Source of the DNA: Clostridia bacterium
GTDB taxonomy: Bacteria > Bacillota > Clostridia > TANB77 > CAG-465
Direction of reading: 5' to 3'
DNA: 62,486 nucleotides
NCBI GenBank assembly: GCA_036653755.1
Contig: JAVVTJ010000002.1
Coordinates: forward strand, 1-62,486
The notes under the pieces were generated by a model. The model was not told where the DNA came from, did not search any database, and saw nothing but the letters and a program-made list of their open reading frames with translations. The translations under genes were made by a program, and so were the position numbers. Shown here in pieces: positions 3,450 to 35,800 of the stretch. Every line of letters begins with the position of its first letter. Positions within the stretch are counted from its first letter, which is position 1.

Positions 3450-6400
3450 TTACCAGCTCCATTTTCCATTTTTAAGTTTTTTATATTCTGCCACTTTAAG
3501 TATTTTCTCTTTCTTTATTTTAGAAATATTTAACCCATCTATATATTTAAAACTATTTTTTCTAGCAGAATTTTTACTAACACCTTTATAATCATTGTCT
3601 TCAATAGAATATCCACTTAAATATGTAAGTAATATTTTTTGTTGTGGAGTCAAATCTAGTTTTACAATTTCTTTCATTACTTTTCTTTTTAAACTATTTT
3701 TTAATTTTTTATCTTCAAAGATACTTTTTTTATCTTCATCACCAACTAGAAAAGCTATATTTTTTTGTAGTTTCAAATATTCATTGACTGGTATTTTACA
3801 ATTGATTATAGGAGTTGTATCTGCAAACTCTTTTGAATAAAGATATGCTTTTGAATTTGCTGGTATATCAGAACTCAGTAAATAATCAATTATTTTAACT
3901 TTTCTAGTATTTTTAATTGTTTTACCATTACTATCCTTTTCAGATGGCATTTTATTTTGAGAAGTATCTATTTTATATGTAACATAATCTTTTATTTCAA
4001 CATTATTTTCTAACAGTTTATCCAATTCTTTTTTATCTGGCATTGAAGAATTATTTTTATTTACTTTTGTATATAACTCCATATATTCCTTTTTTGAAAT
4101 TTTATTGTTTTTTAATGCATATTCAGCATCCATAACTTGTGAACGTTTATCTTCTTCTCTTATCTTGTCATTAAATATATCCATTATATATATATTCCAT
4201 TTTTGACTATCATCTATTTTCATTTTATTTAATATATTAATTTTATCACTATTTTTCCTTTTAGAAGCATTAGTATATTTAGAAAACTCCTCAAATGGAA
4301 CATTTGCCTCTTTATAAATTTTAGTTTCTTTAGCTGTTAGTAAATTAAAACCGTCATCTACATATTTTTTAGCAGTAGGTAGTGAATATTTACCTAATAT
4401 ACCAGCCTGTGCATATGTACCAAGATTAGCATCTTCTATCGCAAATTGTAATTGTTTTTCTCCTTTTTTATTAGTTTTATAACTACCACCTTCTATAACT
4501 GCTGATATTCCATCAATTGTCTTTTTAAGTTGTGATCCACCAAAAGGTAAGAATATATATGTAAGAGGTTTTGACATTTCTTTAATTAATGTTTCATTTC
4601 TATATTCTTCAGACACATCTTTATCAAATGAACCTGCAATTTTAATAACATTAGGTAACATAGAAGCAGTAGGAAGTCTTCCTATATCTTCCATTCCTAC
4701 TAATCCTGCTATATTAGAAAAAGGAATCGCTCCTACTATATTATTTCCTAAGCTTTGCATAGATTTTTCTTTTTCTTCATCATCACCAAACAAATAGTTT
4801 ATAACATCCATTACCCAGTGTATTGGATCCGGAAGTACATCATTTCCACCTCTAATTGATTTAATTAAAGTATTAAATACAAACGTTCCTGCAAATAATT
4901 TAGTATAGTTTTGAACTAGCTGTGTTTTAGTTTTAGCATCTATCTTCATATCTTTAGTATAATTTGATAGTGTATTGTTTACTTCAACTTGAAACATATT
5001 TATTACTTTAGCTATTGGATTTTTAGAATTAAAAGTTACCGGCAGAGCTCCTTTACTTCTATCAGCCATTAAATTAGCTGTATATTTATCAGCATTTGTT
5101 AAAGCATCTATTTCACTCATACCATTGCTAATATTTTCATCATATTTTGCTCTTACAATAGATTCTGATACAAAGTCATCTATAATTTGAAAAGGTTTTG
5201 AAGCAATTTCACTTAATTTATTTACAGTTGTCTTATATAACTTATCTGTTCCTCTTCTTTTAGTTAGAAAATCAGAATTATTTATAAATGAATCGTCGTG
5301 ACTAATTGAACTAGTCATAGTTTTAAGCATTCCTTTTAGAACGTTGCCATATCCTGTTGTACCAGTAGCTTGTATAAGAGGTGCTATATTAGTTAAAGAA
5401 ACACTTAAATTACCTCCAACTGCATTAGCTGCAAATCTACTTTCTAAATTTTGCGCAGTTATATATATATTTCTACCAAGCTCATATTCAAATTGTCTAT
5501 CTGCAGATGATTTTTTACCAGCTAAAACATTTGTATATTCTCTTATCCATGTTACAAAATGGCTCAATTGATTATTTGCTGTTTGATGTATTTTTTCTAT
5601 TGCTTCAACTTTATCTTCTGGCGATATATTTTCATTATCTTTTATTTCTTCAATTCGTTTTTTCATTTCTTCTGATAAATATGAATCTCTTATAGTGCTT
5701 TCAAATGCCCTTAGTCTTTGTATATCATCGGTATGATAAATAATATCCATACTTCCTTGTAAATACATGTCTATTGACTTTAAAGCATTATAATCAGTAA
5801 CATCACTAGTTCTTTGTAATAAATTACCCATCCAAGTTTTACCTGGTTTTCTACTAGCTGTTGTTCCTGCAATTGAAGTATCTAATTCTTGATATGTAGT
5901 ATCTATTCCTACCATACTTGATATTTTCCCTAAAAATGTATCAGGTTTATTCTCAGTAAAATGTGGAAAGTAATTTTTTCTATATTCTACTGGTGCATAG
6001 CCATTGGCAACTAATGTATCACTCATCTTATTACATAAATCATCAAATATTTCTTTATATGTATTACTTGCCTCTTTAATTTTATTTAGATTAACACCAT
6101 AATCAATTACTTGTCCATCGTCTAATTTTTTCTCAAGGTACAACTGTGCTATATCATATTCATTTATTTTATTGCCATCATAAACATATTTCTCTTTTGT
6201 ATCTAGTCCTAAATCTCTAATTCTATTACCTATTTCATTTTTAATTCTAGTAGATTCTGCTTCATTACTTGAATATTTATCATATAGCACTGAATTAATT
6301 TTATCAGCTGTTTTTTTATCTTTTACAACGTCCTGGATATTTCTTGTAAATGTTTCCCTATTTAATCTAAAACCAGCAAAAAGCCCTTTTTTATCTTTCC

Positions 6401-9400
6401 ATTCGTTCATATTCTCAGTTAAATCTTTTACTTTATCATAATGCTCAGCTTTAACATCTTTTCTGAATTTTTCAATTGCTTTTTGTGTTTCTCTTAGAGG
6501 CTTAGAAACTTCGTATACATTAAGTATACCTTTTACATTAGGCTTATCTTTTTTATTTTTAAGTTCCTCCACTGTTAAACTGCCATTTTCTAAAGCTTTT
6601 AAATATTTATTATCAACATCTGTTAAAACTTCTTTAGCCATTACTTTATCATGCTGTTTTTGATATTCATTAGCCATTTTAAATACTTCTTTTACATCTT
6701 CTACTTCTTCTATCTTTTTCTTTTCTTTTTCAGTTTTTGCCTCTTTATACCTATCAGCAAGTTTCACGTCATTTTCAAGTTCATATACTAAATTATCAAA
6801 ATCATTTTTAGCAAATTTTTTATATTCCGGTCCCATAACTATGTCGTTATATTCATTTAAGTTTCTTTCACTAAGTAATATATCTTCTTTAACTTTAGAC
6901 ATTCTAATTAACTGATCTGCTTCATTGTCAATTTTAGATGAAAACAAACCAGGATATACTTCACTAAGCTCTTGATATTTTACATCAATTTTAGTTGCGT
7001 TCATATCGCTGGTTGTTCTTATTTTTATATTGTCCACATCTGATTTAATATTTGTAGGTAAGTATACCTTTGTAGTTTTTAAATCATTAAACAAGTCTTT
7101 ATACTCATTGTAGTATGTTTTATCTACTATTTTTAAATCATTATATAACTTATTAAATAACTTAGTTTTACTTTCATCTGATAATGTACCGTTATTTCTT
7201 ATTTCTTCTTTTATTTCATTTACTGTATTATTTAATAATTCTTTATTTGAATATTTGCTAACTTGTAATTTATCAGTAAGGTTGGTTATAAATTGATTAG
7301 TTTTAGACTTTTCATAACGCTGATTTTTAGATAAAGTTTTAGCAGTATTTACTTCCTTCTTTAAATCTTTAATTTTATTACCTACATTTTCATTTTTATA
7401 TAATGTGTTTAGTCTATTATCCCATACAGTATTAGGTAAAGAAATAGAATTAGATTTTTCTAGTTCTACATGTCCTCTTCCTTCGCTCCCCAATCTGTTC
7501 CATGCTTGTCCTCGAATTTTTGTATTTTTTTGAAGTATCTCTCTGCCATTATTTTTCGTATTTTCCAATATATTTGTTTCAACATTCTCATAATTAACCC
7601 CATCCTTTTTATAATTATATCTTTTATCTTTAATTTTGTCAAATATATTTCTATTATTTAAATATTTTTGCAAATTCTTGTGTTCAGGATTATATTTTGA
7701 AGTTTCAGGAGGTGTGTTTGTTAAATTTTGATTCTTATATTTTTCTAATATGAACCTATCCTTAGTATCGGTGGCTTCAATTTCTCCTAAGCTTTCATAG
7801 TATCTTAGTTTACTTGCTTTGTTGCTTGCTCCACCTTCATAACCTTCTATTTTTTGGATAGCATGTTGTATTTCATGAATTAAGGTTCCTTCTGACTTAC
7901 TTTGAGTGTTTAATTTACTTACATCTAATTTAATTAAATCTGTAAATTTATTATAACTTCCATTAATTTTACTATTTTCAGTCATATGTACTTTATAATT
8001 AGCTAATTCTGGATATGCACTAAATAAAGTATCATGTTCTAATATATCGCCTAATTTATATGTCTTATTTTTTTCTAATTTAATATCTTTTTTTAGCTCC
8101 ATATCTTTATCAGAAAATTCAAATTTCCAGTCACCGTTTTTATCTTGGAACCAATTAGTTGATTGTCTTATAGTTTCATTATTAACACCTATACTTTTCA
8201 TATGTTGTGCATTTTCATATTGTTTCTCTAATTTACTATCATTTAAATTTTCCATTGCTTTTTTACCTGCAATAGAATATTTAGTATTATTTTGCATAGA
8301 ATATTTATCAGTAGTATTGACATCTGTATTTATAGGTGTTATACTATTATTATATAAAGAAGATGTGCGTGGTGATGCGATGAAGGATTTATCCGATGTA
8401 TTGTAGAACGGCATCTTCTTTATTTGTGTTATATCATATAATGTTTTCGTATCACCATGTTTTGCTATATTTATTAAACCTTCATATTTAAATCCATTTA
8501 CTTCAAATACTGTTTTATAATAATCCCAACCGTCTTTTGCAAATGAATGTCTTCCATCATCTTTTACACTATACTGATAATCTGATATATTTAATAAATT
8601 ATCTAATTCTGTACTTGCTTTCATTTTCATTTTTTTGTCAGGATTTTGTAACTCTGTTTTAGGATGTGTATATTCACTTGCTGTCTTGCTTGTTACATTT
8701 ATTTTTTCAGCTGTAGGCAATAGTAGAGGCTTATTACCATCTCTATAATTTTTTAATATATATTTTCTTGCTATATTAGTAAACTCTCTTGCAGTTTTAC
8801 CTTCAAAAATATCTTGGTCTGTATCAACTTTTACATATTTATTTCCATTACTATCTACTTGAATACTAAATTTATTTTGATTATTATTTATATTAGCATA
8901 ATCTTGTTTAAAACTGGTTTCAAATTTATTTTTTACATCTGACCAATATAGCTTTTCACTTTTATATCCAGTTAATTTATTAATTTTATTTAATTTATCT
9001 ATAACCCAATTATATACTTTTTGAGAAATTGTTTGGTCTTTAATAGTTAAATTATTTATAAACTCTTGATCACCTAATTTGCTACCTAATATATCTGCTA
9101 CTGCTTCATTATCTACTAATTCTTCGAATCCTATGCTTTCTTTATCGTATACTTGTGAATAAGCTTCTTCTAATGATTGTCTAGCTTCTAAATATCCACT
9201 TTTTTTAGAATCATAATCTTGTACAAGCTGTTTTAAAGTGTTATATTCATTAGTTCCCTCTAAGTCATGAGTTAATTCATGTACAGTTATATTCTCTAAT
9301 GTTTTATTAGTATCTGCATTTGGATTTAATATGACCTTTCTAGTTATATTACCATTTTCATCTGTATCTACTTTCCACATTGCATTAACATTGTTATTTT

Positions 9401-10643
9401 TAAACATATCTGCATTATATATAGTTTTAATTCCTCTTTCACCAGTTACTTTATCTATACATTTTACTGTTTCATTATTAGTATCTATATTATACTTTTT
9501 AGCACTTAATTTATAATCTGATGGATTTATTTCACTTATAATGTCTTGCATTAAAATATCATCTATTTTGTTTATATCATTTAATTTACTAATTAATTCT
9601 TGTTTATCTTTAACTTCTATATTACTATTAGTTATATTTTCAGCTAAAATATTTCTATTTATATTTGTTTTATCATCAGGCAATATATTTTTTGTTTCTG
9701 ATACTTTTTCACTTAATGTATCTAATATATTGTTACTTGTTTTATAAGTTTGTTTTACTTCTGCATTTGATTGGCTTTTATTGTTTTCTATTTTATTTGC
9801 TATATTTACAGTTTTGCTTAAACCCGCTGTCGCTCCACCCATTACTGCTGAAGTTAATGCTCCATCTACTCCAGATTGTAACATTCTTTGTGGCATGTTT
9901 TCCCAATCAGATTTCCCTAATATAGCTTGCGAAGCTATTTCGGTTGTTGGTTCCATTATTGCTTCTTGTATAACATTATCCATTGTGCTTATTCCAAATC
10001 TTTTTATACCAGCTCTAATACCACCCTTAGCTACTTCTTTAGCACCTTTTGATAATTGCCCTAAACCTATCATTTCAGTAAGCCCCTCAGCTGCCCCTAA
10101 TGTACTACCATATAATAACTTTTGTGTATCGTTTGCACCTTTTTGCTCTGCTTCTTCCATAGATTGTCCACCTGCATTAGCAAGTGATATAATAGCAGAA
10201 AGTACTGGACTTGATAAAGAAGTTACAGCAGTGGGCAACATTTGTCCAATACTTGTGCTTACTTCTGAAGCTTTTTTCATTACATCATTATTAATACTAT
10301 TACTTGCCCTCTGCTCTTGATTAGTTTTACTTTGAATTGTGCTTGATATATTTTTTTGAAAGTCATTCATCCAATTATTTATATCTTCATTTTTTAAAGT
10401 TTTTAAATATGGCTCAACTGTATCTGCTAGAAAATTAGTTATATTTAATCCACTTTTTATAAAACCAGTCCCTAAATTTTCATATATTTTACCAGCATCA
10501 TGAAAAAAATTGTTTTCAGATGTGGGTAAATATGTTGTTTTAGGAATATTATCATAAAAATTATATTCCTTACCATCAATTTTGCCTTCTCTTTGTAATC
10601 TAGCAATTTCATCTATTTTACCAGCTATATTTAATTTAGCCAT
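3450..10643 (-). CDS. Giant (2397-aa) polyvalent virion/ejection-type protein with two zincin-like motifs
   Basis: Single uninterrupted ORF. Gly/Ala-rich hydrophobic N-terminal region. HELTH (9267-9281) and HEIQH..EGYEGG (7863-7877). Long coiled-coil centre and hydrophobic C-terminal blocks. Confidence 0.6.
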   Translation of the reverse strand: MAKLNIAGKIDEIARLQREGKIDGKEYNFYDNIPKTTYLPTSENNFFHDAGKIYENLGTGFIKSGLNITNFLADTVEPYLKTLKNEDINNWMNDFQKNISSTIQSKTNQEQRASNSINNDVMKKASEVSTSIGQMLPTAVTSLSSPVLSAIISLANAGGQSMEEAEQKGANDTQKLLYGSTLGAAEGLTEMIGLGQLSKGAKEVAKGGIRAGIKRFGISTMDNVIQEAIMEPTTEIASQAILGKSDWENMPQRMLQSGVDGALTSAVMGGATAGLSKTVNIANKIENNKSQSNAEVKQTYKTSNNILDTLSEKVSETKNILPDDKTNINRNILAENITNSNIEVKDKQELISKLNDINKIDDILMQDIISEINPSDYKLSAKKYNIDTNNETVKCIDKVTGERGIKTIYNADMFKNNNVNAMWKVDTDENGNITRKVILNPNADTNKTLENITVHELTHDLEGTNEYNTLKQLVQDYDSKKSGYLEARQSLEEAYSQVYDKESIGFEELVDNEAVADILGSKLGDQEFINNLTIKDQTISQKVYNWVIDKLNKINKLTGYKSEKLYWSDVKNKFETSFKQDYANINNNQNKFSIQVDSNGNKYVKVDTDQDIFEGKTAREFTNIARKYILKNYRDGNKPLLLPTAEKINVTSKTASEYTHPKTELQNPDKKMKMKASTELDNLLNISDYQYSVKDDGRHSFAKDGWDYYKTVFEVNGFKYEGLINIAKHGDTKTLYDITQIKKMPFYNTSDKSFIASPRTSSLYNNSITPINTDVNTTDKYSMQNNTKYSIAGKKAMENLNDSKLEKQYENAQHMKSIGVNNETIRQSTNWFQDKNGDWKFEFSDKDMELKKDIKLEKNKTYKLGDILEHDTLFSAYPELANYKVHMTENSKINGSYNKFTDLIKLDVSKLNTQSKSEGTLIHEIQHAIQKIEGYEGGASNKASKLRYYESLGEIEATDTKDRFILEKYKNQNLTNTPPETSKYNPEHKNLQKYLNNRNIFDKIKDKRYNYKKDGVNYENVETNILENTKNNGREILQKNTKIRGQAWNRLGSEGRGHVELEKSNSISLPNTVWDNRLNTLYKNENVGNKIKDLKKEVNTAKTLSKNQRYEKSKTNQFITNLTDKLQVSKYSNKELLNNTVNEIKEEIRNNGTLSDESKTKLFNKLYNDLKIVDKTYYNEYKDLFNDLKTTKVYLPTNIKSDVDNIKIRTTSDMNATKIDVKYQELSEVYPGLFSSKIDNEADQLIRMSKVKEDILLSERNLNEYNDIVMGPEYKKFAKNDFDNLVYELENDVKLADRYKEAKTEKEKKKIEEVEDVKEVFKMANEYQKQHDKVMAKEVLTDVDNKYLKALENGSLTVEELKNKKDKPNVKGILNVYEVSKPLRETQKAIEKFRKDVKAEHYDKVKDLTENMNEWKDKKGLFAGFRLNRETFTRNIQDVVKDKKTADKINSVLYDKYSSNEAESTRIKNEIGNRIRDLGLDTKEKYVYDGNKINEYDIAQLYLEKKLDDGQVIDYGVNLNKIKEASNTYKEIFDDLCNKMSDTLVANGYAPVEYRKNYFPHFTENKPDTFLGKISSMVGIDTTYQELDTSIAGTTASRKPGKTWMGNLLQRTSDVTDYNALKSIDMYLQGSMDIIYHTDDIQRLRAFESTIRDSYLSEEMKKRIEEIKDNENISPEDKVEAIEKIHQTANNQLSHFVTWIREYTNVLAGKKSSADRQFEYELGRNIYITAQNLESRFAANAVGGNLSVSLTNIAPLIQATGTTGYGNVLKGMLKTMTSSISHDDSFINNSDFLTKRRGTDKLYKTTVNKLSEIASKPFQIIDDFVSESIVRAKYDENISNGMSEIDALTNADKYTANLMADRSKGALPVTFNSKNPIAKVINMFQVEVNNTLSNYTKDMKIDAKTKTQLVQNYTKLFAGTFVFNTLIKSIRGGNDVLPDPIHWVMDVINYLFGDDEEKEKSMQSLGNNIVGAIPFSNIAGLVGMEDIGRLPTASMLPNVIKIAGSFDKDVSEEYRNETLIKEMSKPLTYIFLPFGGSQLKKTIDGISAVIEGGSYKTNKKGEKQLQFAIEDANLGTYAQAGILGKYSLPTAKKYVDDGFNLLTAKETKIYKEANVPFEEFSKYTNASKRKNSDKINILNKMKIDDSQKWNIYIMDIFNDKIREEDKRSQVMDAEYALKNNKISKKEYMELYTKVNKNNSSMPDKKELDKLLENNVEIKDYVTYKIDTSQNKMPSEKDSNGKTIKNTRKVKIIDYLLSSDIPANSKAYLYSKEFADTTPIINCKIPVNEYLKLQKNIAFLVGDEDKKSIFEDKKLKNSLKRKVMKEIVKLDLTPQQKILLTYLSGYSIEDNDYKGVSKNSARKNSFKYIDGLNISKIKKEKILKVAEYKKLKNGKWSW

Positions 10644-26311: not shown

Positions 26312-27412
26312 CTATTTTATTATTTTAATATTTCTGCCTAATTCTTTACAAACTTCTTCTAGTGTCATTTCTTCTGCTTTTTCTTTTCTAAAATATTCAA
26401 TATATTCTTTTAAATAATAGCTTTTTAATTTTGCAATTGATTCATAATAGTTTTTTACAAATTGTAAAGCGTATCCGTTTTGTTTAACCGCTTCTAAACA
26501 TATCTCTTCTGTTTGTTCTTCTACAAATTGTAAAGCGTATCCATCTTGTTTAACCGCTTCTAAACACATCTCTTCAGTTTGCTTTTCTACATATCGTAAA
26601 GCGTATCCATTTTGTTTAGCCGCTGCTAAACATATCTCTTCTGTTTGTTCTTCTACAAATTCTAAAGCGTCACCATCTTGTTTAACTGCTTCTAAACAGA
26701 TTGCTTCTATTTGCTCTTCTACAAATTGTAAAGCGTATCCTTCTTGTTTAACCGCTTCTAAACAGATTGATTCTGTTTGCTTTTCTACATATTGTAAAGC
26801 GTATCCAGTTTGTTTAACCGCTTCTAAACAGATTGATTCTGTTTGTTTTTTTACATATCGTAAAGCATTTCCATCTTCTTTAACCGCTTCTAAACAGATT
26901 GCTTCTGTTTGCTCTTCTACAAATTGTAAAACGTATCCATCTGTTTTAACCGCTTCTAAACAGATTGCTTCTGTTTGCTTTTCTACATATTGTAAAGCGT
27001 ATCCGTTTTGTTTAACCGCTTCTAAACATATCTCTTCTGTTTGTTCTTCTACAAATTGTAAAGCGTATCCATCTTGTTTAACCGCTGTTAAACACATCTC
27101 TTCTGTTTGTTCTTCTACAAATTCTAAAGCGTCACCATCTTGCTTTACAGCTTCTAAACAGATTGATTCTGTTTGTTTTTTTACATATCGTAAAACGTAT
27201 CCATTTTGTTTAACCGCTTCTAAACAGATTGCTTCTGTTTGCTTTTCTACATATTGTAAAGCGTATCCGTTTTGTTTAACCGCTTCTAAACAGATTGCTT
27301 CTGTTTGCTCTTCTACAAATTGTAAAGCATTTCCATATTCTTTTACTGCTGCTAAATATTTTTCTTCACTTAACTTTTCAAATTTATTCATATTATTTTC
27401 TTCTTTATTCAT
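26312..27412 (-). CDS. DUF4116-type repeat protein (14 x 22 aa)
   Basis: Unit QTE.ICLEAVKQ.GYALQ(Y/F)VE. counted 14 times in the translation. Confidence 0.65.
   Translation of the reverse strand: MNKEENNMNKFEKLSEEKYLAAVKEYGNALQFVEEQTEAICLEAVKQNGYALQYVEKQTEAICLEAVKQNGYVLRYVKKQTESICLEAVKQDGDALEFVEEQTEEMCLTAVKQDGYALQFVEEQTEEICLEAVKQNGYALQYVEKQTEAICLEAVKTDGYVLQFVEEQTEAICLEAVKEDGNALRYVKKQTESICLEAVKQTGYALQYVEKQTESICLEAVKQEGYALQFVEEQIEAICLEAVKQDGDALEFVEEQTEEICLAAAKQNGYALRYVEKQTEEMCLEAVKQDGYALQFVEEQTEEICLEAVKQNGYALQFVKNYYESIAKLKSYYLKEYIEYFRKEKAEEMTLEEVCKELGRNIKIIK
26437..27364 (-). repeat. 66-bp tandem coding repeats (about 14 copies)
   Basis: Near-identical units such as ttctacaaattgtaaagcgtatcc..tgtttaaccgcttctaaaca recur every 66 nt. 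Confidence 0.85.
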
Positions 27413-27435: not shown

Positions 27436-27774
27436 TTATATTTTTTGCATAGTTTCTACATTATACGCTTTTCCATCAAATCTATCTTTTGACTTAAATA
27501 TTCTACAATCTCTTTTATTCTGATAAACGCCATCTGATACTTCTATAAATTCGTCATCATTTAAAGTTAATTTAGTTAAATTTTGTTGTCGTAATACTTT
27601 CATTATCAAGTCTATTTCATATTCTGCTGACATTCCACTATGCCAGATTTCACAAAATTTTCTAACAATTTCTAATACATTATTGTTTATTATTTTTTGC
27701 ATATTTATTGCTTCTTTGTCTTTTCCACATTCTTTAATTAATAAATCTAATTCATACTTTGTTTTTTCTATCAT
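27436..27774 (-). CDS. Hypothetical early protein
   Basis: 112-aa ORF. No motif recognised. Confidence 0.3.
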   Translation of the reverse strand: MIEKTKYELDLLIKECGKDKEAINMQKIINNNVLEIVRKFCEIWHSGMSAEYEIDLIMKVLRQQNLTKLTLNDDEFIEVSDGVYQNKRDCRIFKSKDRFDGKAYNVETMQKI

Positions 27775-29695: not shown

Positions 29696-29718
29696 CATCT
29701 AAAAGTGAGGTGATATTT

Positions 29719-29955
29719 ATGCTTGAAGCTGGATTTAGTTTTGAATGTTGTCAATGTGGGCATTCAGAACATGAATTAGGTTCTGAATACTGCGAATATT
29801 GCGGTTTAAAATTATCAAACTATTGTAGTAATGCAAAATGTGTTAAAAATTATGGTGCTGATGAACCAATGCAACTCTCTCAAGACGCTCGCTATTGTAA
29901 TATTTGTGGCGAAAAATCTACTCATTATGAACATTTAATTGAAAATGCTCTTTAA
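29719..29955 (+). CDS. Double zinc-ribbon small protein
   Basis: Start ATG 29719 behind GTGAGGTGA. CQCG..CEYCG..C..C..CNICG. ORF track 29710-29955. Confidence 0.5.
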   Translation: MLEAGFSFECCQCGHSEHELGSEYCEYCGLKLSNYCSNAKCVKNYGADEPMQLSQDARYCNICGEKSTHYEHLIENAL

Positions 29956-30058
29956 TATGTTTACCACAATATTTACAATAATTACCTGAATCATATTTAC
30001 CTGTATTCTCACAATACGGACAAGTAAATATGATTTTTTCTTTTTTATTATTTTCCAT
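29918..30058 (-). CDS. 46-aa zinc-ribbon protein
   Basis: Not in the ORF track. ATG 30058 behind GGGGGGA. CPYC..CKYCG. The 3' end overlaps the plus-strand ORF by 38 nt. Confidence 0.4.
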   Translation of the reverse strand: MENNKKEKIIFTCPYCENTGKYDSGNYCKYCGKHIKEHFQLNVHNE

Positions 30059-31622: not shown

Positions 31623-31729
31623 TTTGTCACCACCTTTCATATACATTTTGATAATTCTTTTACTGCTTTTTCTAAATATGCTTTTCTTTACAGTTTTTAT
31701 AATTTATAAATATTCTAACTACATTAGAA

Positions 31730-31951
31730 TTATGTTTTAAAAAAAATAGATGTTTTTTCTTTAATTATTGAACATATATCTATTATTTCATCTGCTGTAA
31801 TAGGAATTTTTCCAGTTTCTTTTTTTGCATAAGTACTGGGAGATATCTTTCTTTTATATTGTTCTTTTAATATTTTAGACATATCATTAATTGATATATT
31901 CATTTTTTTTCTTTTAATTCTTACTTCAATATATTTTACTTCACTTTTCAT
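31730..31951 (-). CDS. Cro-like HTH regulator (first gene of the leftward early operon)
   Basis: 73 aa, HTH-like MSKILKEQYKRKISPSTYAKKETG, RBS AAGAGGTG, divergent from the XRE repressor. Confidence 0.5.
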   Translation of the reverse strand: MKSEVKYIEVRIKRKKMNISINDMSKILKEQYKRKISPSTYAKKETGKIPITADEIIDICSIIKEKTSIFFKT

Positions 31952-31970
31952 TTTTTTACACCTCTTTTCT

Positions 31971-32078
31971 ATTGATATTACAATTATATACTATTATTTT
32001 TGTAATGTCAATAGATTTTATTAATTTTTTTTTACATTTTTCTAATTGTAATACAATTATGTAAATTGTATTGACAAT
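31971..32078. promoter_or_regulatory. Four operator-like ATTG-N5/6-CAAT sites
   Basis: ATTGTAATATCAAT (minus strand, 31984-31971), TTTGTAATGTCAAT (31999-32012), ATTGTAATACAAT (32045-32057), ATTGTATTGACAAT (32065-32078). Sites 2 and 4 overlap the two -35 boxes. Confidence 0.5.
31983..32011 (-). promoter_or_regulatory. Leftward early promoter (perfect consensus)
   Basis: On the minus strand: TTGACA (32011-32006), 17-nt spacer, TATAAT (31988-31983). Confidence 0.65.
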
Positions 32079-32099
32079 ATAACTTGATAGTGATATAAT
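32071..32099 (+). promoter_or_regulatory. Rightward lysogeny promoter (perfect consensus)
   Basis: TTGACA (32071-32076), 17-nt spacer, TATAAT (32094-32099). Confidence 0.65.
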
Positions 32100-32130
32100 T
32101 ATCACATCAATAAAATTTTGGAGGATTTTT

Positions 32131-32472
32131 ATGACTTGTGGAGAAAAAATAAAATATTTAAGAAAAAAGTCTGATTTAACACAAACAGAACTAGCAAAAA
32201 AAGTAGGACTTCAATTTGGATCTATATCTAAATATGAAAAAGATGAAGTATCTATACCAGCTGACAATCTATCTAAAATAGCTGATATTTTTAATGTATC
32301 CACTGATTATCTTCTAGGTCGTACTGATAAACGTGAAAAAGACATTCTTGACCAGCCTTTACAAATTGCTGCATCTATGAAAGATAAAACAGCTGATTTG
32401 TCTAATTTATCAGAGGGTGATAAAGAAGTAGTTAGGCAAATGATAAGAAGTCTTAATGAAAAAAGAAAGTAG
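32131..32472 (+). CDS. XRE-family repressor (CI/ImmR-like)
   Basis: HTH_3 pattern IKYLRKKSDLTQTELAKKVGLQFGSISKYEKDE.. and STDYLLGR. Confidence 0.8.
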   Translation: MTCGEKIKYLRKKSDLTQTELAKKVGLQFGSISKYEKDEVSIPADNLSKIADIFNVSTDYLLGRTDKREKDILDQPLQIAASMKDKTADLSNLSEGDKEVVRQMIRSLNEKRK

Positions 32473-32480
32473 GCGGTTTT

Positions 32481-32894
32481 TTGTATATAGTTATTTTTGC
32501 AATAATTATTATTTGTTTATTTATATTCATAATTCTAAAAGGATATTTCAGTAATTGGAAAAGAACAGTCGATGCAGTATTATGCATATTAATTATTATT
32601 AGAGATAATAATAATAATAATAATATAGACCTTTTAACATATGATATTTTTTGCGAAGTGTTGGATAAAAAGTATAATGCTCTATTTACTGATAGAAAAG
32701 ATATTGTTAAAAATGAATATCTTTTAAATAATGAAAATAATGTTCCTTTACAATTGAATTATCTAATACTTTTATGCTTATTAATAGAAAACAACACAAT
32801 AATTCAAAAATATACAAACAACGAAATTAAATCTATAGATATATTTAATCTACTTAAATTAATAGATAAATATTTGTTAATAAAAGTACAATAA
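32481..32894 (+). CDS. Hypothetical membrane-anchored protein
   Basis: TTG start 9 nt after the repressor stop. N-terminal TM. An N6 run is encoded by an (ATA)n microsatellite near 32603-32625. Confidence 0.4.
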   Translation: MYIVIFAIIIICLFIFIILKGYFSNWKRTVDAVLCILIIIRDNNNNNNIDLLTYDIFCEVLDKKYNALFTDRKDIVKNEYLLNNENNVPLQLNYLILLCLLIENNTIIQKYTNNEIKSIDIFNLLKLIDKYLLIKVQ

Positions 32895-32966
32895 TTTTTG
32901 TATATCGGCAAAGTTCGACAAAATATTCTATAATTATATATTATACTTTAAAAAAGGAGTGATTTT

Positions 32967-33968
32967 ATGGACAAACATTTACCATTAAATTGGTTTAATT
33001 TTTATGTTTATTTTAGATTTCCTCTTGGCATAATATCTATATTAATATCTCTTGTATTTATTTGCACTAATTCAATATTATTTAGTATCAATACTGTTTT
33101 TTTAAATTTAATTTACTTATTAGTTATTTCTTTAACATATACATTAATGTTTAGAAAATCTATTAAGGGTTATTATTTTAATATTGCATTTTTACTAATA
33201 GAAACATTATATATTGTTTTAAATATAAATGTAAATATTTCTGAATATTTTTCTATGTTTTTTATATTCTTTATGATTTGGTTTTTACCAAATTATATTT
33301 ATTTTAAAAAAAGATTATATTTATTTTGTAATAATTCTAAAAATAATGAAAATCTCGAAGAAATAATTGACAAAAAGCATATAAATACTTCAGATACTGT
33401 ATATCCTCTGAAAATTGTTATACCATATATGATAATTTTTGCTATTCTTTTAATTGGTGGACTATTATTTTACTTTATTATAAATGAAAAAGATACAAAA
33501 ATATCAAATATTGAATCTAACATAGTACAACTAGAAAATAGTTTGAAAAATATAAAAATAGATAAACAAAATTTAAATAATGAACTATCTATTTTGTTTT
33601 AAAAAAACATTAATTATCAAAATGATTCTGATTTTTTAAAACAAAATATTGCCATATTACCTTGTAATAGTAATATTTTTCATAAATATGGTTCTAGTTG
33701 TTTAAATAATGTAAAAAGTTTTTATGCATATAATAATGAAACTGCTAAAGCAAAAGGATACGTAGCTTGTTCAATATGCTATTCCTCTAAATCAAAATTA
33801 GAGTTAGAATTACCTACTCAAACTGATATATCGTACACTGTATATATTACTAAAACTGGTACAAAATATCACAAAAATGGTTGTAGTTATTTAAAAAGTA
33901 AAATACCAATTGATAAAGAAGAGGCTATCGAAAAAGGGTATTCTTCTTGTAGTAGATGTAATCCATAA
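32967..33968 (+). pseudogene. Polytopic membrane / coiled-coil / double Cys-His motif protein interrupted by an in-frame TAA
   Basis: ORF 32967-33602 ends at TAA 33600-33602. The same frame stays open for 122 more codons with no ATG/GTG/TTG and encodes two (F/Y)H-K-x-G-x-x-C...GY..C..C motifs. Confidence 0.6.
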
Positions 33969-34026
33969 ACAAAAGATAAAGCACTATTTAATTATAGTGC
34001 TAAATTATAAAAGTTTAATCAAACAT

Positions 34027-34479
34027 ATGTTTAGTAAAGAAGAGAATTGTATGTTAGATAAATTATATGAGATAGCAGAAAAAGAAAATATTAATATTTT
34101 TAGAGTCAAATTAGATGAACCTGAAGCTTTATATATGACTGATGGAGTCAATAGTGTTATAACTATTGATTCTAAAATAAAGGATGACTTAAATTTGGAG
34201 CGAATATTAAAACATGAACTTTCACATCATTCGGTTGGAGTATTTCCTACCAATATTTATTCACATGAATATTGTACTAGACTGTGCCACTCTAAAAACG
34301 AATTTAGAGCTGAAAAATGGTTAATTAATAAACTTATGCCATATAATGTGTTAAAGTCTTTAATTAAGCCAGATACATTTAAATATGAGGTAGCTGAAGA
34401 ATTAGAAGTAACTGAGGACTTTATTGAAAAAGCATATAATTTGTATAGAGATAAATTGAAAGGAGATTTTTATGTCTAA
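34027..34479 (+). CDS. ImmA/IrrE-family metallopeptidase
   Basis: LKHELSHH zincin motif in the usual ImmA context. Start moved to ATG 34027 because 33910-33968 belongs to the upstream frame. Overlaps int by 8 nt. Confidence 0.7.
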   Translation: MFSKEENCMLDKLYEIAEKENINIFRVKLDEPEALYMTDGVNSVITIDSKIKDDLNLERILKHELSHHSVGVFPTNIYSHEYCTRLCHSKNEFRAEKWLINKLMPYNVLKSLIKPDTFKYEVAEELEVTEDFIEKAYNLYRDKLKGDFYV

Positions 34480-35668
34480 AAAAAGAGGAAATGGTGAGGG
34501 GTCTATTTATTATTCCGAAACTTTAAAAAGATGGGTAGGACAATTTACAGCAGGAAGAAAAACAGATGGGACTATAAATAGAAAATCCGTGTATGGTAAA
34601 ACACGAAAAGAAGTAGCTGAAAAGATAAACAAATCAAATGTAGATATCAAAGAAGAGAAATTCGTGGATAAAAATGATATAACAATAGTTTATATATTAA
34701 AAGAAATTATTAACAATAAATATAATTTAAACAAAATATCTGATAGGACTTACATACGTTCTATGGAGACTGTAAAAATAATTGAAAAAAGTGATTTAAA
34801 TTTAATTCCAATACAAAAAATTACTGAGTATAATTTAACCAATTTTTTAGCGACATTAACTAATTATTCAAACTCAATTATAGATAAAGTATATTCATAT
34901 TTAGTACTGGCTTATAACAAAGCTTCGGTTTCGCAATTATTATATAACAATTTATTTTCAGATAAAAACTTAATCTTAAAACCAAAATCGTTGAAAAAGG
35001 ATAAGAATATAACTGCCTTAACAATTGAAGAACAGAAATTATTCTTAAATGAAGTTAAAAAATCTGAACATAAAAATGTATTCTTATTAGCTATTTACAC
35101 AGGAATGCGAATCGGAGAGATTTTAGCTTTACAAAAAAATGATATTGATTTAAAGAATAACCTAGTTCATATAAGTAGGACTTTAACAAAAGATAAACAA
35201 GATAAAGTTATAATAGGAGATACCACTAAAACATATGCAGGTATAAGAGATATTCCTATAAGAATTATAGTTAAAGACGTATTAAATGATGTTTTAGACA
35301 ATTATACAGACAATCAGTATAATTTACTATTTATAACAAAAAATAGTGATATTTGCACCCCTTGTTCTTTCAATAGTATTTTTAAAGAAATATGTAAAAA
35401 CGCACATATTAGAGAATCTATTTATCCATTAAAAAGAAAAGATAAAATAATTAATCTTAAAACTAGTAACGTTAATACACATATGCTAAGACATACATAT
35501 GCTACAAGATGTATTGAAGCAGGAATAAGTCCTGTTGTATTACAAAAGCTATTGGGACATAAAGACATTTCAACTACTTTAAATACCTACACATCTGTTT
35601 TCAATGAATTTAAAATTGATGAATTAAATAAAGTAGATTTATATATGAACAAAATCGGGTTGCATTAA
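34472..35668 (+). CDS. int: Tyrosine integrase
   Basis: GMRIGEILAL (Arg box), HMLRHTYATRCIEAG..LLGH..ISTTLNTYTSV catalytic region. Confidence 0.9.
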   Translation: MSKKRGNGEGSIYYSETLKRWVGQFTAGRKTDGTINRKSVYGKTRKEVAEKINKSNVDIKEEKFVDKNDITIVYILKEIINNKYNLNKISDRTYIRSMETVKIIEKSDLNLIPIQKITEYNLTNFLATLTNYSNSIIDKVYSYLVLAYNKASVSQLLYNNLFSDKNLILKPKSLKKDKNITALTIEEQKLFLNEVKKSEHKNVFLLAIYTGMRIGEILALQKNDIDLKNNLVHISRTLTKDKQDKVIIGDTTKTYAGIRDIPIRIIVKDVLNDVLDNYTDNQYNLLFITKNSDICTPCSFNSIFKEICKNAHIRESIYPLKRKDKIINLKTSNVNTHMLRHTYATRCIEAGISPVVLQKLLGHKDISTTLNTYTSVFNEFKIDELNKVDLYMNKIGLH

Positions 35669-35680
35669 AATTGCATTAAA
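35660..35680 (+). repeat. TTGCATTAAA x2 (candidate arm-type sites, P' arm)
   Basis: Copies at 35660-35669 (overlaps the int stop codon) and 35671-35680. Confidence 0.5.
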
Positions 35681-35728
35681 AATTTGTTAAAACATTGTAT
35701 TATAGCTATTATAATGGCTTATAATTTG

Positions 35729-35752
35729 TTCTTGGACACCATATAATAAGTA
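35729..35752 (+). repeat. attR core
   Basis: Identical 24-mer to 145-168. Confidence 0.9.
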
Positions 35753-35800
35753 GTGATAGATATTAATAAATCAATATCTATCACTACTTTTACTGTTTTT
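35749..35800 (+). terminator. Displaced native tRNA terminator
   Basis: 16-bp stem AGTAGTGATAGATATT / AATATCTATCACTACT followed by a T-rich tract. Confidence 0.6.

Follow-up and report, generated by a model that had tools for sequence, protein, structure and literature searches.

Two membrane-protein genes, one of them interrupted by a stop codon, lie between the repressor and protease genes of a Clostridia prophage

The stretch of DNA described here (referred to as the window) comprises 62,486 nucleotides from a Clostridia bacterium (assembly GCA_036653755.1, contig JAVVTJ010000002.1), has a G+C content of about 25%, and carries a prophage of 35.6 kb (145-35752) inserted in the 3' end of a tRNA-Arg(TCT) gene. 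The structural and replication genes of this prophage are encoded on the - strand, and its lysogeny operon is located at the right end, on the + strand. The operon contains, in this order, genes for an XRE repressor, two membrane proteins which we call ORF-A and ORF-B (ORF, open reading frame), an ImmA-like metalloprotease and an integrase. An initial annotation of the window had proposed that two genes are inserted between the repressor and its ImmA-type protease, and this holds true for both the order of the five genes and the families of their neighbors, which were assigned by HTH_3 and phrog_8 (repressor), phrog_87 and the HELSH motif (protease), and Phage_integrase and phrog_1 (integrase). 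The features of the region are listed below (TM, transmembrane helix; HTH, helix-turn-helix; AF2, AlphaFold2).

31730-31951, - strand: small Cro-like HTH gene, divergent from the repressor gene (HTH_3 at 3.5e-4)
32011-31983, - strand: promoter of the Cro-like gene, 12/12 consensus
32071-32099, + strand: promoter of the lysogeny operon, TTGACA-17-TATAAT with TG extension, 12/12 consensus
32131-32472, + strand: XRE/CI-type repressor, 113 aa (HTH_3 6e-16; RstR-family 1e-21; phrog_8 7e-26)
32481-32894, + strand: ORF-A, 137 aa (coding score, rarity of the open run, Shine-Dalgarno-like hexamer)
32905-32944, + strand: one or more candidate promoters between ORF-A and ORF-B, TCGGCA-18-TATAAT and TCGACA-16-TATATT, 10/12 each; weak, as such matches are common in the AT-rich DNA here
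32967-33602, + strand: ORF-B as encoded, 211 aa; the four-TM domain spans residues 1-120 and is joined by a linker to TM5 (about 148-172), after which a coiled coil begins (ORF list, profile search, AF2 helices)
33600-33602, + strand: in-frame TAA, codon 212 of ORF-B
33603-33968, + strand: start-less continuation of ORF-B, 121 codons, with two His-Cys3 (tentatively Ada-like) zinc modules, ending with TAA 33966-33968
33980-34001: 8-bp stem-loop just past the second stop, possible cassette boundary (folding z-score -4.15; terminator-like on the - strand only)
34051-34479 (alternative start 34027), + strand: ImmA-like HExxH metalloprotease, 142-150 aa (phrog_87 'metallo-protease' 3.5e-17; HELSH motif)
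34472-35668, + strand: tyrosine integrase (Phage_integrase 1e-26; phrog_1 5e-58)
35748-35789, + strand: intrinsic terminator at the end of the operon (17-bp stem, then a run of T)

The two promoters with full consensus stand back to back between the cro-like and repressor genes, and within 32100-35800 the terminator after int is the only one on the + strand. As ORF-A and ORF-B share the repressor promoter and no + strand terminator intervenes until int has ended, it is reasonable to infer that they are co-transcribed with the repressor and thus expressed in the lysogen, in line with what had been proposed for genes in this slot. These two genes also have the lowest G+C content of the prophage (2nd percentile). 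The initial annotation had taken adjacent repressor and protease genes to be the norm. Such adjacency is indeed found in Acetoanaerobium phage ANDSL2_ph1, which agrees with the published description of immR-immA modules (PMC12323379), whereas here the two genes are separated by 1578 bp (from the repressor stop to ATG 34051), with ORF-A and ORF-B inside this gap. The same phage encodes the closest annotated relative of the ImmA-like protein (31% identical), and that relative matches Pfam Peptidase_M78 at 2.8e-9, while the protein from the window gave no direct match to this model even at E<=10 and a PDB sequence search with it found nothing. IMG/VR holds no close relatives of the integrase or of the ImmA-like gene. 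The integrase gene overlaps the ImmA-like gene by 8 nt. As to the start of the latter, ATG 34051 or 34027 is preferred; a TTG-started 189-aa ORF (33910-34479) was rejected as the protease gene since it would overlap the ORF-B extension.

The ORF-B ATG at 32967 is preceded by an AGGAG Shine-Dalgarno sequence. In the AF2 model, residues 1-120 of its product form four helices (8-115), and a fifth helix (145-194) runs into a coiled coil; further downstream, the DNA still specifies two modules (about 45 aa each) that carry the ligands H..C...C..C. The initial annotation described a protein of about 330 aa with 4-5 TM helices, a further TM, a coiled coil and two Cys/His motifs, and all of these parts can be recognized, but the in-frame TAA leaves ORF-B with 211 aa. 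When aligned with intact homologues, this stop falls in the stalk just before the first zinc module. Downstream of it, between 33603 and 33965, there is no in-frame ATG, GTG or TTG and no Shine-Dalgarno sequence, and internal re-initiation was thus rejected. Reassignment of TAA was likewise rejected, as TAA terminates 10 of the 17 prophage genes checked, and so was a frameshift on the T4A7 run, as no change of frame occurs across the stop.

ORF-A begins with TTG at 32481, with 8 nt between it and the repressor stop (TAG, 32470-32472); its place just after the repressor gene, its length of 137 aa and its TM segment stand as initially described. There is a single hydrophobic segment, at the N-terminus (about residues 2-19; mean hydropathy of residues 1-19 above 3), directly followed by K20, K27 and R28. 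The position of these basic residues right after the anchor suggests that the C-terminal part of about 110 aa is cytoplasmic. The Asn run noticed earlier is present as Asn6, encoded by (AAT)6 (about 32608-32625). Then come about 90 residues with a high content of I, L, N and K. Among 5.8 billion proteins ORF-A matched only itself. No match was found in Pfam, NCBIfam, PHROG or PADLOC, nor any local match, and tblastn against 50,697 phage records gave none either. ORF-A can be regarded as a lineage-specific orphan of 137 aa.

Both genes allow a different account of what is actually encoded. The simplest reading of ORF-B is that it is probably an allele recently truncated by a nonsense mutation, with 33603-33968 probably an untranslated, still undamaged relic. 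The cell would then make a membrane stub of at most 211 aa, cut between the stalk and the zinc modules, and since the gene is cut by the stop, the Cys/His motifs are probably not made. It might be argued instead that the full 333-aa protein is made. The TAA could be a sequencing or consensus error or a minority allele, or ribosomes could pass it often enough to matter, in which case two products would arise, a short membrane protein and a longer one carrying the zinc modules at the surface. The 121 downstream codons without a second lesion and with all eight zinc ligands intact speak for such a protein. An open run of this length has P ~4e-6 per frame at this base composition and occurs in <=0.1% of shuffles. 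The coding score is also highest past the stop, 0.64 bits/codon (the operon maximum) as compared with 0.48 for ORF-B, each positive only in the proposed frame. The extension has homologues (nuclease-tail modules to 8e-22; phrog_14556 at 3e-12), and it can be aligned with the C-terminal ends of the intact homologues. The significant hairpin is located after the second stop (33968) and not after the first, which fits a cassette that originally ended at 33968. On the other hand, the identical stop at 33600-33602 is present in three assemblies, namely the window, Logan contig L002 (100% identical over 32370-34070) and NCBI fragment P0068, whose last residue is that of ORF-B, although all three may derive from one sample. 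Among the stops of the prophage TAA is also the one used most often, and in bacteria UAA is less prone to read-through than the other stop codons. No recoding signal is evident, and a frameshift is neither needed nor helpful with the same frame on both sides. We therefore regard a full-length product as distinctly improbable, and annotating a 330-aa protein at this locus would be wrong because the gene is truncated. In the case of ORF-A, one could suppose that it is no gene at all, only AT-rich DNA that was left between the genes when ORF-B was inserted and that is open by chance. The lack of homologues in every search, the TTG start, the low-complexity Asn run, the composition dominated by I, L, N and K, and a coding score lower than any other in the operon (+0.32 bits/codon) would all agree with this. 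Nevertheless, that score is positive in the proposed frame only, a 137-codon open run (P ~7e-7 per frame at this base composition) occurs in <=0.05% of shuffles, an AGGCGG hexamer resembling a Shine-Dalgarno sequence stands 4 nt 5' of the start in DNA of 18% G+C, the 8-nt spacing to the repressor stop is tight, as is typical of translational coupling, and the product has a clean N-terminal TM helix. A chance origin of ORF-A thus seems quite unlikely to us.

One observation on the relic should be added. The first module (33628-33662) has the spacing H-x5-C (HKYGSSC), as compared with H-x3-C (HKYxC) in the intact homologues, and this 2-residue difference in ligand spacing may be an early sign of decay.

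The initial annotation recognized neither of the two proteins. ORF-A stays an orphan, but ORF-B can now be placed in a large unnamed family defined by its four-TM (4TM) domain. This domain begins with LPLNWFNFYVYFRFP and ends with WFLPNYIYFKKRLYLF in ORF-B; the corresponding family consensus motifs are LPxxWxxFYxYxRxP and WxLPNYIYFKKRxxLF. A profile (A1) built on the ORF-B 4TM region and two relatives, so that the window protein was itself part of the seed, retrieved 676 clusters at E<=1e-3 from 1.84 billion representative proteins, 173 of them at E<=1e-10. In 102 members, P19, Y112, R116 and F120 are invariant, and W9, F12, W105, P108, N109 and F113 are nearly so. No model covering the domain was found in Pfam, NCBIfam, PHROGs or PADLOC, and tblastn of ORF-B against the 50,697 phage records gave no match. 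The partner domains in these 102 members are most often N-terminal zinc ribbons (29 of 102), and also include double zinc ribbons, GYF_2, TPR and SHOCT. Since such partners are normally cytoplasmic, both motifs should lie on the cytoplasmic face of the membrane, with the fifth helix (about 148-172) leading outwards; the basic residues of ORF-B (RKSIK after TM2 and KKR after TM4) agree with this placement.

Seven clusters share the plan of ORF-B in an intact form (P0083, P0084, P0092, P0094, P0128, P0064 and P0161). Their proteins of 296-359 aa are encoded in one continuous frame and consist of the 4TM domain, a linker, the fifth TM, a coiled coil and one zinc module at the extreme C-terminus. 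The window copy departs from the continuous frame of this subfamily by its TAA at codon 212. Fusions in reverse order also exist (P0024, P0060 and P0095), with a signal peptide, a zinc module, TMs and then the 4TM domain. The intact plan together with these fusions indicates that the membrane domain and the zinc module are a real functional pair, of which the window copy is a broken example. Other searches gave less: a profile search of a word-indexed database with alignment A3 returned 5 proteins only, and Foldseek of the whole 333-aa model against PDB found nothing meaningful (E>=3.4). The topology and structure predictions that had been proposed as a check thus gave the four helices, TM5 and coiled coil of ORF-B and the one TM of ORF-A, while the model of the whole protein is mediocre (pLDDT, the predicted local confidence score, of 62).

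In the relic, the His and three Cys residues are found in each of the two modules, and they are conserved among 70 homologous modules. The first module aligns with the single module of the seven intact homologues; the second is 64-74% identical to C-terminal tails of secreted micrococcal-type nucleases, hydrolases of the metallo-beta-lactamase (MBL)/ComEC-like type, EEP nucleases and small lipoproteins. As these carriers have signal peptides or lipoboxes, the module is probably extracytoplasmic, and the positive-inside topology of ORF-B would also put its zinc modules outside the cell. With modest confidence, the module may be called Ada-like. Pfam Ada_Zn_binding (PF02805) matches with a score of 22.8 bits, just below the cut-off of 23 (E 9e-5, profile positions 48-64 only). 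In the AF2 model of the relic, pLDDT is 85-90 in each of the two modules, and the top three Foldseek matches of this model in PDB are all Ada N-terminal structures (1WPK, 1ZGW and 1U8B), weak as they are (E 0.45-1.5, probability 0.33-0.54). The Ada N-terminal domain, the nuclease tails of the type 'TVYITKTGxKYHxxGCxYL...GYxPCxxC' and the ORF-B modules have in common four ligands with the same spacing, and would share a small beta-beta-alpha fold. Unlike in Ada, the first ligand in the ORF-B module is His and not Cys, its predicted location is extracellular and not cytoplasmic, no methyl-acceptor role is implied, and the scores are borderline. A PDB sequence search with the zinc modules found nothing, and a literature search found no name for the module.

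The genomic contexts of the relatives come from a small sample drawn in part from a viral database, and the enrichment of the 4TM family in phage accessory positions is accordingly suggestive. IMG/VR provided seven contigs encoding relatives. A survey of the int-proximal slot in related prophages had been suggested, and such relatives were indeed found between repressor and integrase: after an HTH_3 repressor gene divergent from a cro-like gene and before a serine recombinase gene (L007 and L012), between an HTH_3 gene and a tyrosine integrase gene (L009), abutting a large serine recombinase gene (P0161 in L017), and probably also in L011, where the 4TM gene is directly 3' of the repressor gene. 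In six further loci (L006, L008 and L019-L022) the 4TM gene, here one that also encodes a zinc module, borders the 3' end of a giant gene of the phage, a homologue of the 2397-aa ORF of the window (present as fragments in L019-L022). In L003 a 4TM relative is located beside endolysin and holin genes. Outside of phages, 4TM genes occur in Rhs/YD toxin-immunity islands among small immunity-like genes of Clostridia and Oscillospiraceae metagenome-assembled genomes (L013, 5194-6447; L015, 5920-6735), a setting that hints at a role in inter-bacterial conflict, and in one case among ordinary chromosomal neighbors (L016); L018 was assigned to neither setting. A scan of a genome collection with a 3-sequence alignment found 4 loci, none from the source species. 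The family thus comprises at least 676 protein clusters without an entry in Pfam, NCBIfam or PADLOC, and recurs in two phage accessory slots.

Two details of these loci deserve mention. In the phage loci L011 (4141-4515) and L020 (1504-1944), the gene directly after the 4TM gene encodes a small protein that has a coiled coil and, at its C-terminus, a TM helix, and this protein may be a recurrent partner. The phage lysogeny region of L012, which carries a tandem-4TM gene, also encodes a lipoprotein with one His-Cys3 module and a Fic/DOC protein (3789-4208, 7466-8563).

Several characterized systems resemble the locus in layout. In lactococcal prophages, genes between int and the repressor gene encode superinfection exclusion (Sie) proteins of the membrane, and one of these systems consists of two parts, a membrane protein and a protein with a metalloprotease motif (PMC7693887). 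Sie2009 of Tuc2009 and its relatives are encoded between repressor and integrase, are small, have a hydrophobic N-terminus and low G+C, and are expressed in the lysogen (PMC7693887). ORF-A shares with them the slot, the small size, the hydrophobic N-terminus (the hydropathy value given above), the low G+C and, presumably, lysogen expression, and ORF-B is a polytopic membrane protein. The likeness is one of position and layout, as ORF-A has no sequence similarity to the Sie2009 type in PHROG or Pfam and its soluble part is predicted to be cytoplasmic. In SieF7/2AB (TP901-1 orf2/orf3), a membrane protein and a protein with a metalloprotease motif act together (PMC7693887); ORF-A and ORF-B similarly stand directly 5' of the HELSH protein gene within the lysogeny module, which is again a comparison of layout and not of sequence. 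However, the 4TM gene occurs without any protease gene in L007, L009, L012 and L017, and functional pairing is therefore not required.

Ltp of Streptococcus phage TP-J34 is a surface lipoprotein from the lysogeny module whose action on incoming phage takes place at the membrane (PMC3952083). A module outside the membrane would likewise be displayed by intact ORF-B homologues, but ORF-B is polytopic and the module displayed would be an Ada-like zinc module and not Ltp repeats; the lipobox L-[AS]-[GA]-C is absent from the ORF-A and ORF-B sequences. With the ImmR-ImmA-Int modules of ICEBs1, phage phi105 and staphylococcal phietaviruses (PMC12323379) the locus shares an XRE repressor gene divergent from a cro-like gene and an HExxH gene that accompanies the repressor gene and overlaps int. 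It differs in that the repressor and protease genes are 1.5 kb apart and the protease is short (142-150 aa) and has no direct Pfam M78 match. Finally, PdpSau and AbiP are prophage abortive infection (Abi) proteins, products of accessory genes, with one N-terminal TM helix as anchor and a cytoplasmic body (PMC10127798). ORF-A has the same predicted layout, whereas pdpSau follows the lysis genes and is not in the lysogeny module, and ORF-A has no shown OB-fold or other similarity to it.

Taken together, we consider it fairly probable, with some caution, that the locus is truncated moron cargo in a lysogeny operon, most likely of an exclusion-like kind. ORF-A and ORF-B would be accessory genes within the prophage lysogeny operon, transcribed with the repressor from one promoter. 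ORF-B would belong to a subfamily with the 4TM domain, a fifth TM, an extracellular coiled-coil stalk and an Ada-type His-Cys3 zinc module, whose intact members would hold this module, probably binding nucleic acid or a polyanion, on a stalk outside the membrane. The cargo might then interfere at the envelope with incoming phage or foreign DNA, in a manner similar to superinfection exclusion. Position and context support the view of lysogen-expressed cargo, while position and analogy suggest an exclusion or defense function. The proposal of candidate exclusion or defense cargo made in the initial annotation is thus partly supported: the interruption of an otherwise canonical module, the low G+C and the recurrence of 4TM relatives in the same slot (L007, L009, L012, L017 and probably L011) speak for it, and the lack of a match to any defense or exclusion family and the occurrence of the family outside phages speak against it. 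Nor are the homologues confined to non-mobile contexts, an outcome which had been named as speaking against the proposal: most of the inspected loci are phage-borne, though some are not (L013, L015 and L016). A number of points weigh against our reading. Neither ORF-A nor the membrane part of ORF-B shows similarity to characterized Sie, Abi or PADLOC proteins (PHROG, Pfam, NCBIfam, PADLOC); PADLOC-DB v2 gave nothing for ORF-A or the N-terminal part of ORF-B, and for the extension only a chance-level match to PycC (E 0.017). Some int-repressor slot genes of lactococcal phages gave no resistance in tests (PMC7693887). The truncated ORF-B may be non-functional. ORF-A is without homologues and therefore offers no evidence of selection. 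The evidence for an Ada fold is weak (Pfam 0.2 bits below the cut-off; the Foldseek E values given above). The 4TM family, being present also in L013, L015 and L016, is not phage-specific.

The cargo might instead help the lysogen in a way other than phage exclusion, for example by immunity to membrane-acting polymorphic toxins or bacteriocins, by envelope remodelling or by handling of extracellular DNA. The 4TM genes in Rhs/YD toxin-immunity islands (L013 and L015), the zinc module joined elsewhere to secreted nucleases and ComEC-like MBL hydrolases, and the spread of the 4TM family beyond phages with its varied partners (zinc ribbons, GYF_2, TPR and SHOCT) would be in favor of such a role. 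Most inspected loci are nevertheless phage-borne and in classical accessory slots, and no toxin gene adjoins the window's copy, so that we hold this alternative to be unlikely. A bolder idea, to which we give little credence, is that the 4TM-stalk-zinc proteins are a new and widespread phage-borne surface class. Their Ada-like module would bind nucleic acid or a polyanionic wall polymer, either blocking the entry of foreign DNA or signalling extracellular DNA to the prophage switch via the ImmA-like protease, and the window would hold a freshly inactivated allele beside an orphan partner. If true, the blocking of foreign-DNA entry by an extracellular zinc module would be a new exclusion mechanism.

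Whichever role applies, the locus is of an ordinary kind, prophage accessory cargo of two unfamiliar proteins, and its value lies more in the 4TM family and the zinc subfamily than in the damaged locus itself. In Firmicutes, the exclusion and abortive-infection functions of temperate phages reside in accessory genes of the lysogeny module, most of which are unnamed. The 4TM-zinc subfamily is a testable candidate for a new envelope-level phage-host function, and an intact homologue would serve better for this than the window copy.

The prophage is bounded by an exact direct repeat of 24 bp, with one copy at the tRNA gene and the other overlapped by the operon terminator.

81-157, + strand: tRNA-Arg(TCT), integration target (ARAGORN), 3' end overlapping the att core
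145-168: attL core, TTCTTGGACACCATATAATAAGTA, 24-bp exact direct repeat with 35729-35752
35729-35752: attR core, TTCTTGGACACCATATAATAAGTA, 24-bp exact direct repeat with 145-168

When 31700-35800 was compared at the DNA level with the 50,697 phage records, short matches to the repressor were all that was found. The giant 2397-aa ORF (3450-10643, - strand) has no PHROG match; it contains a single 'large polyvalent protein' domain, LPD23 (E 1e-10), and the HExxH motif twice. The endolysin gene is at 1457-2125. At the attL end, after the endolysin gene, a 213-aa protein (506-1147, + strand) has a C-terminal PemK/MazF toxin domain (E 4e-14); its N-terminal part of about 100 aa has no assigned family, and there is no obvious adjoining antitoxin gene. 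In the early region, a 111-aa protein (27436-27774, - strand) was assigned to the Pfam family Tad3, 'Type I Thoeris inhibitor' (E 1.5e-25; 89.7 bits, cut-off 27), and its gene is thus a candidate anti-defense gene aboard the prophage. The gene at 26312-27412 (- strand) contains a 66-nt unit in 13.7 tandem copies (85% matches; repeat 26456-27356), and its product consists almost entirely of DUF4116 repeats (E 2e-94, 11 stretches). Also in the early region, two small convergent overlapping ORFs (29710-29955, + strand, and 29918-30058, - strand) are rich in CxxC and resemble zinc ribbons.

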